Virus record (IMG/VR): IMGVR_UViG_3300010203_000021
Coordinates: 7,014 to 71,013 of that record
Reading direction: 5' to 3' (one strand)
Source: a virus
Lineage: Duplodnaviria > Caudoviricetes
DNA length: 64,000 nucleotides
Shown in pieces: positions 6,918-50,010 of the stretch. The position numbers and the translations under genes are program-made. Under the pieces are notes generated by a model that worked only from the letters and a program-made list of their open reading frames with translations, was not told the DNA's origin and did no database searches. The first letter of the stretch is position 1, and each line of letters begins with the position of its first letter.

Positions 6918-7634
6918 TCAGCCCTCCACTTCGACAAATTCGCCGTCAGCACTCAGCGAATACCAGGTGTTCGGCTTGATGCCGTTTTCACCGACCTTGC
7001 TCGCGCGGATCGCGATGATTTTGTCATTGTCGTCGCGGTGAACGAGGCAGATGGCGCATCCTTCTGCGGCCTGTGCGCGGCCTTTCCAGCCGGTGGAAAT
7101 TGCAACGCCCTGATCGCCGGACGCCGTGGCCGCGCCCCGATTGCCGGACGCCGTGGCCGCGCCCCGATCGCCGGACGCCGTGGCCGCGCCCCGATTGCCG
7201 GACGCCGTGGCCGCGCCCCGATTGCCGGACGCCGTGGCCGCGCCCCGATTGCCGGACGCCGTGGCACCTTCGTTATCTTCGGTGGCAACCGGCCCGTCTT
7301 TCCAGTTCGCGCGTTTGAAAACCCATTCGATGGCGCGCTTGGTCAGATCGCCAATCGAAAGCTCAACGCCGATGGTGATCTTGGCCGATGCGAACTTGGT
7401 GCCGTCCTTGTCAGTGTCGCCGGATTGCTCGACCTCGCAAAAGCGCGACGACGGCGGGTAGTATTCCAGCACCGACAGCGGGTGCTCATCGACCGGGCAA
7501 GCGTGGAAACCGTTCACGCAGGCTTCGATATTTCCGCTGACCTCATAGGTCTTGCCGATTTCAAACTGAAACCCGCGACACGTCATGTCTGGGTTGAACG
7601 CTTTGATGGAAATTGTTTTTTCGTCAGCGGACAT
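6918..7634 (-). CDS. DUF7666-like phage protein with GAATASGNR repeats
   Basis: KAFNPDMTCRGFQFEIGKTY...ACVNGFHAC...PLSVLEYY N-terminus; 9-aa repeats; GIKPNTWYSL C-terminus. Confidence 0.8.
   Translation of the reverse strand: MSADEKTISIKAFNPDMTCRGFQFEIGKTYEVSGNIEACVNGFHACPVDEHPLSVLEYYPPSSRFCEVEQSGDTDKDGTKFASAKITIGVELSIGDLTKRAIEWVFKRANWKDGPVATEDNEGATASGNRGAATASGNRGAATASGNRGAATASGDRGAATASGNRGAATASGDQGVAISTGWKGRAQAAEGCAICLVHRDDNDKIIAIRASKVGENGIKPNTWYSLSADGEFVEVEG
7112..7267. repeat. In-frame 27-bp tandem repeat (~6 copies, CCGATTGCCGGACGCCGTGGCCGCGCC)
   Basis: Directly visible; encodes GAATASG(N/D)R. Confidence 0.95.
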
Positions 7635-36368: not shown

Positions 36369-37199
36369 ATGGCCGCGCCGAATGATCTTGTCTCGCTGCA
36401 GGACGTCAAAGCCTTCCTCGGCGTGCAAAGCGGAAACGACGACGCCCTGCTCACCGGCATGATAGCGGGCGTCAGCCAGGCGATCCGAAATTATCTGAAC
36501 CGCCCCTTTTTTCTGCCGAAAGTCGTCACCGAGAACTATGACGGGATCGGCGGCGATGCGCTCCTGCTGCGAAATTGGCCGGTGACGTCGGTTCAATCGG
36601 TTTCGGTAAATGGTCAGATTGTCCCGCCGGCGCCGACACCTGGTCCCAATGTCGCACCGGGCGCAGGCTGGCAATTGGAGGATGACGGCGGCATCCCTCC
36701 AGGCGCAATGCAACGCATCTTCTTGACAGGTTACAGCTTTGCCAAGGGGCGTCGCAATGTGACGGTGACTTACCGCGCCGGATATCAGCTCATCGGCGAG
36801 CACGCCACAATTCCGGCCGGCGGCGGCCAGATCGCACCGGAACAGCCTCATGGAGCTTGGGCCAGCGATCAGGGGGTCGCTTTCGCTGACGGAACTGTGT
36901 TGACTGCAGTGAGTGGGGCGCCGAACGCGGGCCAATATTCGGTCAACGCCGCCATCATCAGGTACACTTTCGCTGCCGCGGACGCCGGTAAGGCCGTGTT
37001 GCTTTCCTACGGCTATATCCCGTCGGCGCTTGCTGACGCGGCGAAAGAGTGGATCGCGGACCGGTACAGGCACAAAGACCGTATCGCTCAGGTCAGCAAG
37101 TCTTTGGGTGGCCAGGAAACAACGGCATTCCGCATCACAGACATGCCTGGCTATGTGAAACTGCTGCTCGTCAATTTCAACTGCATCCTGTCGGTGTGA
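36369..37199 (+). CDS. Head-tail connector (gp6-like adaptor) with inserted beta domain
   Basis: LVSLQDVKAFLG...DDALL..MI..VS..I.NYLNR; VTVTYRAGY; YGYIPSALADA. Confidence 0.85.
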   Translation: MAAPNDLVSLQDVKAFLGVQSGNDDALLTGMIAGVSQAIRNYLNRPFFLPKVVTENYDGIGGDALLLRNWPVTSVQSVSVNGQIVPPAPTPGPNVAPGAGWQLEDDGGIPPGAMQRIFLTGYSFAKGRRNVTVTYRAGYQLIGEHATIPAGGGQIAPEQPHGAWASDQGVAFADGTVLTAVSGAPNAGQYSVNAAIIRYTFAAADAGKAVLLSYGYIPSALADAAKEWIADRYRHKDRIAQVSKSLGGQETTAFRITDMPGYVKLLLVNFNCILSV

Positions 37200-37203
37200 C
37201 GCC

Positions 37204-37698
37204 ATGGCGTTCAACATCCAAATCGTGGGAGACCGCGAGGTCATCGCCCGGTTTGCCGCTATGCCGGAAGGGGTTCGGCAGGCATTGAAAAACAAGGTGA
37301 CGGTTCTCGCCTACAAATTGCAGGCGAAAGTTGTCTCCGAAAAGCTTTCAGGGCAGGTCCTGAATCGTGTGACCGGAAAGTTAGCTCGGTCGATCCATAA
37401 CGTGATCGATGATGAAGGGCTCAAGGTCACCGGGAAAGTCGCATCCTCCGGCGATGTGAAGTATGCCGCCCGCCATGAGTTCGGATTCACCGGGACCGAG
37501 AGCATCAAGGCGCACACCCGCACGATCACGCAGGCCTTCGGCGAGCAATTGAGTGAGGCCAAGCAAGTCGCCGTGCGCGCCTATAGTCGTCAGGCGAAGA
37601 CGCCCGAGCGGTCATTCTTGCGATCCAGTCTCGACGATATGCGGGAGGAGATCATCAAAGGGCTCACCGACGCCGTGCAGAAAGCCATCAAGGAATGA
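37204..37698 (+). CDS. Neck/tail-completion protein (HK97 gp10-like)
   Basis: TGKLARSI, YAARHEFG, PERSFLRSSL. Confidence 0.8.
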   Translation: MAFNIQIVGDREVIARFAAMPEGVRQALKNKVTVLAYKLQAKVVSEKLSGQVLNRVTGKLARSIHNVIDDEGLKVTGKVASSGDVKYAARHEFGFTGTESIKAHTRTITQAFGEQLSEAKQVAVRAYSRQAKTPERSFLRSSLDDMREEIIKGLTDAVQKAIKE

Positions 37699-41063: not shown

Positions 41064-41291
41064 TTGAAGCCGGAAAAAGTTCGCATGACTGTTTCGCTCC
41101 CGGTTGATGCAACCGAGTTCTTGGACCGGGAGGCTGAAAAAGACTGCACATCGCGCAATGCGCAGATCGTCCGCTCTATTCGTGAGCGGATGGAAAAGGT
41201 GACGGCGGGGGAAGCTTTGGTCGGCGAAGCCCCGCCGTCACTGAACGAAACCACCGCCCTGGCAAGCGGTGTCCCTAACCACCACGGTTGA
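41064..41291 (+). CDS. Arc-like ribbon-helix-helix protein
   Basis: VRMTVSLPVDATEFLDREAEKDCTSRNAQIVRSIRE. Confidence 0.82.
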   Translation: MKPEKVRMTVSLPVDATEFLDREAEKDCTSRNAQIVRSIRERMEKVTAGEALVGEAPPSLNETTALASGVPNHHG

Positions 41292-41304
41292 TGAAGGAAC
41301 CGAA

Positions 41305-42048
41305 ATGGCTGACTTGATGAATACAGGCGAACCAGCCGCCATGTCGAGCCGCGAAATTGCGACTTTGACCGGCAAACAGCACAAGAACGTGTTGCGCGAC
41401 ATTCGCGACATGGTGACGGCAGTTTACGGTGCTGAAATCGATGGCTCAGATTTGAGCCATGAACAAATTCAAGGGGTTGCGTGGGAGCGCGATGACCGAG
41501 GCTATCTCGCCGTCGTTCATCTGGACAAATCGAACACGCTCACGCTCTTGACCGGCTATGACGCCAAGGCGCGCAAACGCGTCATTGATCGTTGGCAGCA
41601 GCTTGAAGAACAGGTTCGCGCCCCGGCTTTCGACCCCGCAAAGTTTTTGGAAAGCCCCGCCGCCATGCGCGGCCTGCTCCTGACCTACACCGAGAAGGTT
41701 ATTGCCCTTCAGGGAGAAGTCGAAGAGATGCGGCCCGCTGTGCAGGCCCTTGATCTGATCGCCGGGACGGATGGCAGTATGTCCATTACGGAAGCCGCCA
41801 AAAACCTTCAGGTGCAGCCCAAGCAGCTTTTCGGATGGATGCGCTCCAACGAGTGGATCTATCGCCGCCCCGGCGCCGCCGCCGACCTCGCATATCAGGC
41901 CCGGCTTCTGACCGGCTATCTCGAACACAAGATGACGACGGTCACGCGGAGCGACGGCAGCGAGAAATCCGTGACGCAAGTCCGCGTGACCCCCAAAGGG
42001 CTGGCGCGGCTGGCTAAGGAATTCTCGCAGGAACGTGCGCTGGCCTGA
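41305..42048 (+). CDS. Rha-N / KilAC (ANT) antirepressor
   Basis: MSSREIATLTGKQHKNVLRDI; LTGYDAK.R.RVIDRWQQLE; SITEAAK.L...PK.LF.WM; QVRVTPKGLARL. Confidence 0.93.
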   Translation: MADLMNTGEPAAMSSREIATLTGKQHKNVLRDIRDMVTAVYGAEIDGSDLSHEQIQGVAWERDDRGYLAVVHLDKSNTLTLLTGYDAKARKRVIDRWQQLEEQVRAPAFDPAKFLESPAAMRGLLLTYTEKVIALQGEVEEMRPAVQALDLIAGTDGSMSITEAAKNLQVQPKQLFGWMRSNEWIYRRPGAAADLAYQARLLTGYLEHKMTTVTRSDGSEKSVTQVRVTPKGLARLAKEFSQERALA

Positions 42049-42318: not shown

Positions 42319-42711
42319 ATGGACGAACAAGACAACGGCGCCGGCCCGAGCCGGCGCGAATTCGGGTCGCTGTTTTTCGGTTCTGCTGTGGCAACTGGCG
42401 CGCTGATTGGTGCCGCTGAAGTCGTCGGGAAGGCCCACCCGGATCAGCATATCTTCGACATGATCGCGGAAATGCAGGCGTGGATCGCCAAGGCAAACGC
42501 GCCGGAATCTGATGAGGAAATGACAAGTTTCTGCTGCGGCAAGCAGGAGGATCTTTTTGACAGGTTCCTCCAACAATCTCCGCAGACGAAAGCGGGCATT
42601 CGCGCTTCGCTCGAATATCTCGTCGAAGCAAAAGAACATTTTTCCTACGACACCGACGAAATCCGCCCGCTGATCGAGGGGATTCTCGCAAGCCCCGTTC
42701 TCGCGGCCTGA
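42319..42711 (+). CDS. Hypothetical protein with a Tat-like SRREF N-terminus
   Basis: GAGGGG RBS; PSRREFGSLFFGSAVATGALIGAA. Confidence 0.65.
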   Translation: MDEQDNGAGPSRREFGSLFFGSAVATGALIGAAEVVGKAHPDQHIFDMIAEMQAWIAKANAPESDEEMTSFCCGKQEDLFDRFLQQSPQTKAGIRASLEYLVEAKEHFSYDTDEIRPLIEGILASPVLAA

Positions 42712-42843
42712 ACACCCGAACAACCGAATTCCCCACCGCCATGGGGATATGCACGACCGAGCGAGCTTCATCGGCCCGGCGGTCGTAACGCGACCACCTG
42801 ACGTGCACAGGTCTTGGCGGGCCGGTGCCGATGGAGACAGATC

Positions 42844-43599
42844 ATGGCAAAGAAAGATGAAGGACAGGCTGAAATCACGATTCAGCCGTTGAAACGCGCG
42901 ACCGTGAAGCTTCGGATTATTGGCACGACGCCGTTGTTTCAAAACCGAATGGCCGAAAAAGCGCGCCAGCAATTGCTGGTCGGTGGCGGCAAGAAGACCA
43001 GGGCGGACAAGGCTGGGATCAAGCACGATCCGTTTACCGAATTCCGCGCCAGCGCTGAGACGCTTCCGTCCGGTCCGACCGCGCTCGGGCTGCGCGTCGT
43101 CGCCGTCAAGGCGGCTATGTGCACAGCGGCATTGGAAACGCCCGGGCTGACGAAGACGTCGGCGCAACGCCTGCTTTATCTGGCCGGCGATCACTTTCCG
43201 CTCTACGGAACGCCGCAACTTCGATGCGACGTGGTGCGCAGCGCCGACATCAACAAGACCCCTGACATCAGGACGCGCGCGTTCCTGCCGCGGTGGGGCG
43301 CCGAGATCGAGGTTTCATTCATCACGCCGCAACTCAGTCTGTCGTCGGTCATCGCTCTGCTTTGCAACGCGGGCGTTCTGGTCGGCGTCGGTGATTTTCG
43401 CCAAGAAAAAGGAAAAGGCGCGTTCGGCAGCTTCCGCGTTCTTGGAGACGGGGAGGAAGACGACGAATGGGACGATCTCGTCGCCAACCACGGGCGAGAG
43501 GCACAACTCGCGGCGCTCAAGAACCCGGAATTCGCCAACGATGAAACCGAAGAACTGATGCACTTCTTTGCGTCCGAAGTGAAGCGGAGGGCTGCGTGA
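42844..43599 (+). CDS. RAMP/Cas7-like (Vipr-type) RNA-binding protein, 251 aa
   Basis: N-terminal strand KLRIIGTTPLF; AVKAAMCTAA helix; RTRAFLPRWGAEIEVSF; C-terminal Gly-rich loop AGVLVGVGDFRQEKGKGAFGSFRV; adjacent to the GGY-NN array. Confidence 0.78.
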   Translation: MAKKDEGQAEITIQPLKRATVKLRIIGTTPLFQNRMAEKARQQLLVGGGKKTRADKAGIKHDPFTEFRASAETLPSGPTALGLRVVAVKAAMCTAALETPGLTKTSAQRLLYLAGDHFPLYGTPQLRCDVVRSADINKTPDIRTRAFLPRWGAEIEVSFITPQLSLSSVIALLCNAGVLVGVGDFRQEKGKGAFGSFRVLGDGEEDDEWDDLVANHGREAQLAALKNPEFANDETEELMHFFASEVKRRAA

Positions 43600-44102
43600 T
43601 GGCTACGTTCACCAAAGAGCTTCGGCAGCAGATCGTCGAGGATTTCGCCCGGCGCCATAACGGGCTCTACGACCCGGCGCTGTTCCTTCAGGAGGTCAAG
43701 GACGCCGGAAAGGAGCATCCTGCGCATTCATGGTTCACATGGAATGACATCGACGCGGCGGCGGCTCACCGGCTGGATCAAGCGCGTGATTTCGCGCGCG
43801 GTCTGAAAGTCGTTTTCCGCATCGAACAGGTTACCGGCCCGAGTCAGGTGCGCGTGCATCAGGTTGAGGCGCCGTTGGTCCACAGTCCGCGAGAAGGGCG
43901 CAAGGATGGCGGCGGTTACCGATTGACCGTCCCGACGCTGGACGATCATCTGCACGAACTCGCTGGCCAAGCGGCCGACGATCTTCGCGCGTGGGCTGCG
44001 CGCTACAAGGCGCCGCTGACAGCCGCCGGTATTGCTGACGGGAAAATCGAGGCGATCATCGCAAAACTCGAACTGCTTGCTGAAGACCGTAAATCGGCCT
44101 GA
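43596..44102 (+). CDS. Accessory protein coupled to the RAMP-like gene
   Basis: GTGA overlap; YDPALFLQEV...HPAHSWFTWND.DAAAAHRLDQARDFARGLKV. Confidence 0.8.
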   Translation: MMATFTKELRQQIVEDFARRHNGLYDPALFLQEVKDAGKEHPAHSWFTWNDIDAAAAHRLDQARDFARGLKVVFRIEQVTGPSQVRVHQVEAPLVHSPREGRKDGGGYRLTVPTLDDHLHELAGQAADDLRAWAARYKAPLTAAGIADGKIEAIIAKLELLAEDRKSA

Positions 44103-44136
44103 GCAAGAATAGCCAGCGCTCTGCCGCAAGGGCGCT

Positions 44137-44504
44137 GGTTTGGCACGGAGCGGCATGCGTGGCGAGGCTGGGTTTGGTCAGGCTGGGCGAGATGAGGCGC
44201 GGCAGGGCAGGCGTGGCTAGGATAGGCGATGCAGGGCATGGCGCGTCTCGGTCAGGCAGGCAAGGCAAGGAATGACCCGGCGCGGCAAGTCATGGCGTGG
44301 CACGGCGAGGCAGGCGAGGTCTGGATTGGCGTGGAAGCGCGTGGATCGGTTAGGCGTGGCAGGCGCGGCGTCGCGAGGCGTGGCTAGGCTAGGCAAGGCC
44401 CGGATAGGCGTGGCGAGCCAAGGCAGGCGAGGCTTGGCGCGGCTGGGCAAGCCAAGGCACGGTAGGGCTTGGTTCGGAGGGGCGAGACCCGGTTGGGCAG
44501 GTAA
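44137..44504 (+). repeat. GGY-NN pentamer array (candidate guide RNA locus): 68 pentamers plus 7 GGCA tetramers
   Basis: Exact parse with no leftover bases (68x5 + 7x4 = 368 bp); bracketed by hairpins at 44111-44140 and 44514-44536. Confidence 0.93.
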
Positions 44505-44706
44505 CCCTTTTACGGGGAGCGCCACTGGCGTTCCCCATCCCCCCATAAGCAGCAGGAACACGCCATAAACGGTTTTTCTCAAGTGTAATAAATGACCAAA
44601 ATAATGTGCTCCGCAAGGCAGTAGGTGTATCCAGCGGGCCGCATCTGATTGACGGGTTCCGTCAGACCGTGCATGTGATCATTATTTGCTTGCACGGAGA
44701 TTTCAG

Positions 44707-45171
44707 ATGAAAACCAGCGCGAAAGTTTTGCTGATCGCTGTCGCAACCGTGGCGTTTTGGGGTGTGGCCGCGCCGTTTATCGCCAAGATACCGGCCTCCG
44801 AGCCGCACCCGTCAAATGTAAAAATCTATCAAATTACCGCAGATCACCCGCAATTTGGATCGCTCGACCTCGACGGCTGGCTCGATGTTTCCGCATGGGG
44901 TTCATCGACGAAGGCAGCTGTTTTGGCTCAGTTGAGAGACCCCGATTCCGCGAAGTTCTCAGAGATCTTTGCTGTTGGGGACAGAAAAGTCGGCAAAGCG
45001 TTCCCAGTAATTATTTGCGGTAAAGTCAATGCAAAAAATGGATTTGGCGGCTTCACTGGGGATCAACCATTTGTTCGCTTCATGGCGACCGGGGCTGTAA
45101 CGCTCGAAAAGCAGACAGCGATTAAAGAATGGAACGCTTATTGCGCTGGTGGGCACAAAGATCCAGCGTAA
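44707..45171 (+). CDS. Exported/membrane-anchored accessory protein
   Basis: N-terminal hydrophobic signal; QLRDPDSAKF...CGKVNAKNGFGGFTG.QPF; lower GC. Confidence 0.8.
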   Translation: MKTSAKVLLIAVATVAFWGVAAPFIAKIPASEPHPSNVKIYQITADHPQFGSLDLDGWLDVSAWGSSTKAAVLAQLRDPDSAKFSEIFAVGDRKVGKAFPVIICGKVNAKNGFGGFTGDQPFVRFMATGAVTLEKQTAIKEWNAYCAGGHKDPA

Positions 45172-49428: not shown

Positions 49429-49713
49429 TCAAGCAACCTTTGCAACCGTCAATCGGAGACCTAACGCCGTCGCGGCTTTCGTCAGCGTCTCCAGCGTCGG
49501 GTTCCCGCCCGGGACCAACCCTTTATAGATCGCTTCGCGGCTCAAGCCGGTTTGTCGGGCAAACTCGGTGACGCCGATGGCTCTGGCGATCTCTCCAAGC
49601 CCCGACGCGATGAAGGAAGGGTCGCCTTCTTCAAGAAGAACCTCGAAATAGGCGGCCCGCTCCTCCGGGGTGTTGAGATAATTCCGAATGTCGAATTCCC
49701 GAGTCTCGACCAT
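49429..49713 (-). CDS. Addiction-module antidote, HTH (HI1420-like)
   Basis: FD...YL...EE...Y....LEEGDP..I...LG.IARA.G.T..AR.TGLSRE.IYK.L...GNPT. Confidence 0.92.
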   Translation of the reverse strand: MVETREFDIRNYLNTPEERAAYFEVLLEEGDPSFIASGLGEIARAIGVTEFARQTGLSREAIYKGLVPGGNPTLETLTKAATALGLRLTVAKVA

Positions 49714-49716
49714 AGA

Positions 49717-50010
49717 TTAGACCTCCTTTGCGAGCGCCTTCGCGGCGCGAATGTCGCGCGCTTGCGATCCCTTGTCGCCGCCGCCCAGCAGAATGATGAT
49801 TTCGGTCCCGCGGCGGCAGAAATAAATGCGGTAGCCGGGGCCGAAATGGAAACGCAGCTCGCCCACGCCGTCGCCTACATCCTTGTGATCCCCGAGCGAG
49901 CCAGTTTCTTGAACCCGGCGCAACCGCTCCGCGATCCGAAGGCGCGTCTTCAAATCTTTCTGGCTGCTCAGCCAGTGCTGAAAGGGGAGCGTTTCCAAGA
50001 GCTTCAACAT
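49717..50010 (-). CDS. Addiction-module killer, RelE/ParE fold (HI1419-like)
   Basis: F..WL...KD...R.RI..RL.R....G.LGD.K.VG.GV.ELR...GPGYRIYF...LLGGGDK.SQ.RDI. Confidence 0.93.
   Translation of the reverse strand: MLKLLETLPFQHWLSSQKDLKTRLRIAERLRRVQETGSLGDHKDVGDGVGELRFHFGPGYRIYFCRRGTEIIILLGGGDKGSQARDIRAAKALAKEV

Follow-up and report, generated by a model that had tools for sequence, protein, structure and literature searches.

A probable prophage VIPR system with a staggered guide array

Results

A RAMP-type gene, an accessory gene, and a pentamer array lie side by side in a prophage

The DNA analyzed here is a 64-kb stretch (the window) of the 71-kb virus record IMGVR_UViG_3300010203_000021, and its subject is a locus that resembles VIPR (Viral Interference Programmable Repeat), a DNA-silencing system related to clustered regularly interspaced short palindromic repeats (CRISPR) and first described in preprints of 2026. 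The locus comprises a gene, vipr, whose product is predicted to be a repeat-associated mysterious protein (RAMP), a vap-like accessory gene, and an array of short repeats, all on the same strand (Table 1). This module is placed between an antirepressor gene and a tail tape-measure gene, and the genes called within ∼10 kb on both sides are structural and regulatory phage genes (no window-wide scan for cas genes was made). Because the same genes are present on a 200-kb metagenome contig, we regard the virus as a prophage.

An earlier note on this DNA had placed the array 34 bp after the two genes, and this spacing is exact, as the stop codon of the accessory gene occupies 44100–44102 and the array runs from 44137. 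The same note had reported the absence of a repeat-spacer array; in agreement with this, no CRISPR-like repeat was found in the 64-kb window. One other tandem repeat is present in the window, a 27-nt unit at 7106–7265 (5.9 copies, 96% matches) that is not CRISPR-like and that may encode a repeated peptide, since its period is divisible by three. No sigma-70-like promoter was found upstream of vipr or upstream of the array, and Rfam models, including those of hammerhead ribozymes, gave zero matches within 42600–44900. The features of the locus support its assignment as the minimal set of a VIPR system, consisting of vipr, a vap-type gene, an array, and a proviral setting.

Table 1. Features of the candidate VIPR locus (window coordinates)
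Feature	Position	Strand	Description
vipr	42844–43599	+	251 amino acids; ATG at 42844 after GGAGA ribosome-binding site
vap-like accessory gene	43599–44102	+	167 amino acids; ATG overlaps vipr stop by one base at 43599
Leader hairpin	44111–44140	+	12-bp stem, 6-nt loop (RNA fold)
Leader motif	44141–44155	+	CACGG core, then first GGCA; shared with Bradyrhizobium-type relatives
Predicted guide 1	44156–44205	+	10 pentamers
Predicted guide 2	44210–44254	+	9 pentamers
Predicted guide 3	44259–44308	+	10 pentamers
Predicted guide 4	44313–44357	+	9 pentamers
Predicted guide 5	44362–44421	+	12 pentamers
Predicted guide 6	44426–44495	+	14 pentamers; followed by last GGCA (44496–44499) and one unit (44500–44504)
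Terminal hairpin	44514–44536	+	10-bp stem, 3-nt loop (RNA fold)

The array is built of pentamers interrupted by GGCA tetramers

The array was parsed by an independent dynamic program that rewards G, G, and a pyrimidine at unit positions 1–3 and penalizes 4- and 6-nt units. This program returned exactly the division of 44137–44504 into 68 pentamers and 7 GGCA tetramers that had been proposed before, with the best path beginning at 44131, one 6-nt unit before 44137. The pentamers each consist of a triplet followed by a variable dinucleotide (NN), and 49 of the triplets are GGY, where Y is a pyrimidine (39 GGC and 10 GGT). Eight others are GGA, and 11 are one-mismatch variants (TGC, CGC, GTC, GAC, and GCC twice each, and GAT once).

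The tetramers start at 44152, 44206, 44255, 44309, 44358, 44422, and 44496. Their spacings of 54, 49, 54, 49, 64, and 74 nt divide the array into segments of 3, 10, 9, 10, 9, 12, 14, and 1 pentamers, and six of the seven tetramers precede GGC or GGT. In the sequence GGCAG, the last G is shared with the following GGC, so that each tetramer can be described as a 1-nt overlap of two pentamers. The first three pentamers are made up of the 3′ arm of the leader hairpin and the leader motif; they are therefore not counted as a guide, which leaves six guides. The lengths of these guides, 9–14 units, fit the 9–16 repeats published for each VIPR guide RNA (vrRNA).

The pentamer periodicity of this region is well beyond chance. 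Base identity within the array is 0.55 at a lag of 5 nt and 0.20–0.28 at lags 1–3 and 6–8; the intermediate value at lag 4 (0.33) is due to the tetramers. Under a stricter scoring, the array scores 129.5, compared with ≤15 in 30 first-order Markov surrogates of the whole window, ≤20.5 in 300 surrogates of the array's own composition, and 8.75 for the minus strand of the window. When both strands were scanned, the array at 44137–44504 was the sole one called in the 64-kb window.

The vipr product has a predicted RAMP fold and is related to a solved Vipr protein

The vipr product had zero matches in Pfam, NCBIfam, and PADLOC, and in PHROGs it falls into a family of unknown function. The vipr family is large, with 2100 representative clusters at E ≤ 0.001. 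The earlier note had called this product RAMP-like and had suggested AlphaFold modeling and a Foldseek search with 42844–43599. An AlphaFold2 model made from a diverse alignment of 117 sequences had a predicted local distance difference test score (pLDDT) of 96 and a predicted template modeling score of 0.89; with 21 close homologs, the pLDDT was 41. The modeled protein has a Cas7/Csm3-type RAMP fold with a single RNA recognition motif (RRM), a thumb hairpin, and a glycine-rich loop (G-loop). All 54 of the Foldseek matches listed at E ≤ 1e-3 were Cas7-type RAMPs (Csm3, type VII Cas7, and chains of type III-D and Cas10-Csm effector complexes); the copy of the Protein Data Bank (PDB) that was searched ends at 2026-04-08 and is without entry 36pp, so this fold comparison is one with CRISPR RAMPs only.

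When the model was aligned with VIA-align to Csm3 (9g9g_I), 153 residues in the span 14–205 were matched with a Z score of 10.9 and a root mean square deviation of 4.2, and the same list includes Cmr and Cas7-11 entries. Residues 14–205 contain the RRM core, the thumb hairpin (strands 125–132 and 140–148), and the G-loop, and residues 206–251 form three extra C-terminal helices outside the structurally matched part. The glycine-rich loop recognized in the earlier note is thus present, but it is not C-terminal, as it sits at residues 175–195 of 251 and is followed by the three helices.

As a separate line of evidence, a profile of the 117 vipr homologs was compared with all PDB chain sequences. 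It matched chain 36pp_D, the SUSP1 Vipr protein, with an E value of 1.6e-8, and the next match had an E value of 0.45. In this alignment, SUSP1 residues R138, D177, W178, and R179 correspond to R145, D184, F185, and R186 of the vipr product. The four SUSP1 residues are those assigned to recognition of G1, G2, and Y3 in structures solved by cryo-electron microscopy (bioRxiv 2026.04.26.720927); our comparison of GGY contacts covers these four, out of a set of contacts to which H17, K33, E71, and M72 also belong. R145, D184, and R186 are kept in ≥90% of the vipr family, and the replacement of SUSP1 W178 by F185 retains the aromatic character of the position. At the level of sequence, these results support homology between the vipr product and the solved SUSP1 Vipr protein.

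Relatives of vipr retain the accessory gene and the array

Relatives of the locus were collected from 30 genome loci and 39 IMG/VR loci (∼70 in all, denoted by L numbers). The genome loci come from Bradyrhizobium, Microvirga, Methylobacterium, Hoeflea, Aureimonas, Rhodobacteraceae, Sphingobium, Binatia, metagenome-assembled genomes (MAGs) of planctomycetes, and a Bifidobacterium MAG. The homologs do not usually lack the array: 26 of the 30 genome loci and 38 of the 39 viral loci have one beside vipr on the same strand. The first of these counts includes one locus that was judged by eye only (L001), and three of the four genome loci that remain end at or near the gene. In the relatives, the array is found after the accessory gene, between both genes, or at both sites.

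In 21 of the 30 genome loci, the accessory gene follows vipr directly and has the same orientation. Its product is 30–53% identical to its relatives, with the invariant motif S-P-x-x-G-R-x-x-G-G-G-Y, and the gene diverges faster than vipr (53% versus 79% identity to the nearest relative). The protein belongs to PHROG 15946, which has no known function; its relatives in the ESM Atlas are viral hypothetical proteins, and neither profile searches nor the Atlas structure search was informative. The unit of two genes and an array that had been described for the window is a natural one, as all three travel together in the relatives.

The pentamer code is also shared. Across all unique arrays, the frequencies at pentamer positions 1–3 are 0.92 for G, 0.76 for G, and 0.87 for Y, and positions 4–5 each carry ≤0.1 bit; the corresponding values for the window array, calculated by hand from the parse counts, are 0.94, 0.90, and 0.88. 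Compared with ordinary units, the 296 unique junctions are more strictly conserved, with GGC[A/G] and then G[G/T]C as their consensus.

The site of the module differs between phages, as it is found in the tail region here, after the portal gene in L073, and in the immunity region of Mycobacterium phage Donkeykong. Based on this variation, the module behaves as a mobile cassette.

A structured leader precedes the array

The earlier note had drawn hairpins on both sides of the array, and both of them fold as proposed (Table 1). The motif composed of a CACGG core and a GGCA also precedes the first guide in Bradyrhizobium-type relatives, and the corresponding stretch of L048 is near-identical to that of the window. 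A leader hairpin occurs at the same place in relatives with differing stems. In an alignment of 11 sequences from one subfamily, compensatory changes are seen at 9 of the 11 predicted pairs, and the window's own row aligns poorly there. About 60 nt before the array, a common leader is found in L003, L004, L006, L011, L036, L041, L047, L053, and L069, and its order is a short fixed motif, a variable paired hairpin, and a fixed motif that ends in the first junction.

At their other end, the arrays of relatives stop directly at GC-rich hairpins with T-runs, which are intrinsic terminators. The terminal hairpin in the window probably marks the 3′ end of the array transcript.

No mention of the conserved leader (the hairpin and the CACGG-containing motif) or of the strict junction consensus was found in the available portions of the VIPR preprint text.

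Related arrays in other phages and a neighboring gene pair

In Donkeykong (NC_051648.1), the region at 36870–37256 (L072:1980–2366), which is annotated as gene 48 and a hypothetical protein, is an array of GGC-NN pentamers with GGCA junctions, and gene 48 is probably mis-annotated. The product of the gene directly downstream of this array, gp49, is a Vipr homolog with 32% identity to the window protein over residues 11–199. Phage records with similar matches number 27 for Mycobacterium and 5 for Gordonia. The Donkeykong module adjoins repressor, antirepressor, and excisionase genes, and the antirepressor gene precedes the module as it does in the window, where the antirepressor gene (Phage_pRha and ANT domains) occupies 41269–42048, ∼800 bp upstream of the VIPR module.

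Two viral contigs carry short extra pentamer arrays on the opposite strand, ∼1.5 kb upstream of vipr (L035:8578–8680 and L037:8166–8244 (−)); these may be orphan guides. Elsewhere in the window, two small genes stand among the tail genes at 49429–50010 on the minus strand (L031:16586–17167) and match Pfam dnstrm_HI1420 and Gp49 (weak). Judged by these domain matches, the pair looks like a HigB/HigA-type toxin-antitoxin module.

Comparison with published VIPR types and CRISPR-Cas systems

The earlier note had named VIPR-type phage systems, and these do exist in the literature (bioRxiv 2026.04.26.720920, 2026.04.26.720927, and 2026.10.15.759431). The available text of the first of these preprints (10.64898/2026.04.26.720920) describes Vipr proteins, vap genes, and vrRNAs of 9–16 GGY/NN repeats; VIPR systems fall into seven types and occur mostly in viral or proviral hosts. 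According to the same text, double-stranded DNA is read as two paired bases plus one skipped base, and the outcome is transcriptional silencing. The mechanism that had been proposed for the window from its repeats (each 5-nt unit bound by one protomer that buries GGY and leaves NN on display, and a gapped target in which one base is passed over) is the published one, as far as the available text of this preprint and its companion on structures (2026.04.26.720927) describes it. The third preprint (2026.10.15.759431) reports a contest between phages and satellites in which vrRNAs are aimed at rival vipr genes, and a fourth recovered 99 VIPR-like clusters from intergenic DNA.

In its available text, 10.64898/2026.04.26.720920 also describes “staggered arrays with overlapping vrRNAs,” derived from positions that overlap by 1 nt. 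Ribozyme-interspersed and single-vrRNA architectures are given there as confirmed by small-RNA sequencing, and the staggered form is not listed among them in that text. Like the staggered systems (fig. S18 of that preprint, by its text and legend), the locus in the window has a lone Vipr RAMP gene, a vap gene, a GGY/NN array, a provirus, and no CRISPR array, and its abutting vrRNAs with a 1-nt overlap would be represented by GGCA followed by GGC. By this description, the window array fits the staggered form.

The closest solved system is type II VIPR, known from Escherichia phage SUSP1 and a Pseudomonas fulva prophage (PDB 36pp). Its protein is homologous to the vipr product and has the same GGY-contact residues apart from the aromatic exchange described above, and the two systems have in common the pentamer code, a two-gene operon, a phage setting, and a similar guide length. 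They differ in that SUSP1 vrRNAs end in an invariant pseudoknot tail, whereas the guides of the window are separated by the 4-nt GGCA only; the 3′ pseudoknot that type II has at each guide was not found here, and a single hairpin follows the last guide. In addition, SUSP1 Vipr has 202 residues, compared with 251 and three extra C-terminal helices in the window protein, and the accessory protein of the window is without a detectable winged-helix or helix-turn-helix signature.

The Cas7/Csm3 backbone of type III and type VII CRISPR-Cas systems resembles the vipr product in its RRM core, thumb hairpin, and glycine-rich loop (Z scores of 10–11). It is also alike in polymerizing on a guide RNA at a fixed step with bases flipped out at regular intervals, but CRISPR advances by 6 nt and flips out one base per step, whereas VIPR advances by 5 nt and buries three. 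Unlike in class 1 CRISPR-Cas systems, no Cas10, Cas5, Cas6, or Cas11 gene adjoins vipr, no repeat-spacer array is present in the window, and PADLOC gave no match for either protein of the locus. A further difference from CRISPR-Cas is that VIPR, as published, targets double-stranded DNA and reads it with gaps.

Searches for targets of the guides

The earlier note had suggested searching for gapped targets with each array segment. Such searches were performed, and they did not convincingly beat shuffled controls. The guides had zero matches to the phage's own 71 kb at skips of 0, 1, or 2 bases; the absence of self-matching guides is also reported for published VIPR systems. Exact one-skip patterns of guides 2, 3, 4, 5, and 6 had zero matches in IMG/VR. 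Guide 1 had a single exact match in IMG/VR, which was judged to be due to chance, as the phage gene that it falls in is AT-rich and the skipped bases are those at codon position 2. In Joint Genome Institute (JGI) metagenome contigs, there were zero matches to the exact gapped pattern of guide 5 or to that of units 2–12 of guide 6. When ≤3 mismatches were allowed, guide 6 had no match in 401 genomes of the order of Microvirga zambiensis or in five genomes that carry relatives of the locus.

Guides of relatives were analyzed in the same way. One 15-unit guide from L006, the Hoeflea locus, had no match in four relative-carrying genomes, its own included, or, with mismatches allowed, in 81 genomes of its family, and 160 guides of relatives showed no excess over shuffled guides when compared with the window phage. 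A set of 238 unique guides of the clade was compared with 815 kb of related phage DNA; at a skip of one base, 10 guides matched at ≥85%, compared with 3 shuffled guides, and at skips of 0, 2, and 3 bases, the numbers of guides at ≥85% were 6, 3, and 5.

Two leads point to genes of rival VIPR systems

When the dinucleotides of guide 1 are read as codon positions 1 and 2, they spell V-E-W-F-Q-W-[DE]-[DE]-A-[SR]. In many vap genes of relatives (22 of the 25 matches listed), the best site for this guide is the conserved W-F-x-W motif or its F-F variant. The match to this motif, the most conserved one of the rival vap genes, keeps the reading frame and skips the wobble position, and it reaches 16/20 in three lineages (L007, L008, and L073), compared with 9/20 at the same site of the window's own vap gene. 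A second lead comes from an intergenic guide of the Microvirga zambiensis prophage (L004:4768–4826), which matches the last seven codons and the stop codon of vipr in frame. This guide scores 17/20 in L001 and L006 and 16/20 in the window at 43576–43604 (the vipr 3′ end and vap start), and only 14/20 in its own vipr because the two arginine codons there belong to the other codon family.

Both leads fit the published contest of VIPR against VIPR, and they raise the question of whether the guides of this locus mainly fight the vipr and vap genes of rival prophages, with the owner's genes recoded to escape. The report that vrRNAs of SUSP1-family phages target the vipr end and have lower self-match scores (2026.10.15.759431) is in line with such a role. 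Against it, chance alone gives best matches of about 16/20 in large sequence sets. In a shuffle test restricted to vipr and vap genes, p was 0.055 for guide 1, and guides 2–6 gave nothing. The guide-1 core matches 16 stretches of IMG/VR exactly, and zero of them are in a vap gene. Neither lead is statistically secure, and we treat them as leads only; that rival VIPR systems are the main opponents of these guides we consider rather unlikely.

Discussion

Based on the fold and homology of the vipr product, its conserved GGY contacts, the anatomy of the array, and the conservation of the locus in ∼70 relatives, we conclude that the locus is very probably a complete prophage VIPR system composed of vipr (42844–43599), a vap-type gene (43599–44102), and a staggered vrRNA array (44141–44504). 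By analogy with the published systems, the array would be transcribed on the plus strand, either with both genes or just after them, and the transcript would end at the hairpin at 44514–44536. Vipr protomers would then bind the RNA with one protomer per pentamer, with the thumb arginine R145 and the D-F-R of the G-loop (184–186) holding GGY and with NN exposed. Each 4-nt GGCA is expected to break the 5-nt register, which would give six guide filaments of 10, 9, 10, 9, 12, and 14 units, and GGCA is accordingly the presumed delimiter of guides. These filaments are predicted to read double-stranded DNA by the published rule, pairing with two bases and skipping the next, and to silence the transcription of the bound gene. 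Their likely targets would be phages, prophages, or satellites that compete for the same host.

Several results weigh against this assignment. The alignment to SUSP1 Vipr covers only ∼50 residues, from the thumb arginine to the G-loop, and the 251-residue vipr product has a 46-residue C-terminal extension that is absent from the 202-residue SUSP1 chain. The accessory protein had zero matches in Pfam, NCBIfam, PADLOC, or the PDB sequences and so matches no known family. The terminal hairpin at 44514–44536 is without a T-run. A natural target was not found for the six guides in IMG/VR, metagenome contigs, or genome sets, and the excess of clade guides at a skip of one base is in the right direction but weak.

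Some of these results would also be expected if the locus were a decayed or idle relic, with an array that is not a working set of guides. The failure to find targets in IMG/VR and metagenome contigs, the 11 of 68 triplets that depart from GGN together with the 8 that are GGA, and the terminal hairpin without a T-run are all in keeping with decay. On the other side, both genes are intact and contain every family-invariant residue, the conformity of the window array to GGY equals or betters that of the family, and internal degeneracy of vrRNAs is reported as usual. Given the state of the genes and of the array, we consider decay improbable.

A role of the repeat as DNA or as a structured nucleic acid, either as iteron-like binding sites or as a G-quadruplex tract that regulates the downstream tail genes, is more improbable still. 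A GG every 5 nt could in principle form two-tetrad quadruplexes, and the array with this spacing is located just upstream of tail genes. Such a role does not account for a neighboring RAMP in which the GGY contacts of a protein solved on RNA of this kind are retained, nor for the finding that the vipr-adjacent arrays of relatives are always on the strand of the genes and are then followed by terminators. The variable site of the module argues against a function tied to tail genes, and near-random NN between fixed triplets suits a guide and not a binding site. Protein coding by the array region can be set aside almost entirely, because the open frames at 44272–44568 (+) and 44217–44582 (−), of 98 and 121 codons, are in keeping with the low frequency of stop codons that G-rich sequence has by composition alone, a 5-nt period with 4-nt interruptions cannot hold a codon frame, and identity lacks a peak at the codon period (0.208 at lag 3 versus 0.548 at lag 5), even though the equivalent array of Donkeykong is annotated as a gene.

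Within the assignment of the locus as a VIPR system, we put forward one broader model tentatively. In this model, a single missing base, seen as the junction GGC[A/G] plus G[G/T]C, defines the guides in place of an RNA tail, a ribozyme, or a repeat handle, the structured leader sets the start of the array, and at least some guides (guide 1 of the window among them) hit the vap or vipr genes of rivals, which the owner has recoded in its own copy to escape. Taken together, these propositions are possible but less likely than not to hold in full.

The VIPR class has already been published in the 2026 preprints, and the locus in this window is a further example of it. What it adds is a clean example of a staggered array from an alphaproteobacterial prophage and a family-wide account of the guide junction and of the leader that precedes the first guide. 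The cultured Mycobacterium phages with related modules provide a test bed for the processing of staggered arrays. If it is true that one missing base separates the guides, this would be a very compact way to encode multiple guides, and it could be of use in tools for multiplexed silencing.

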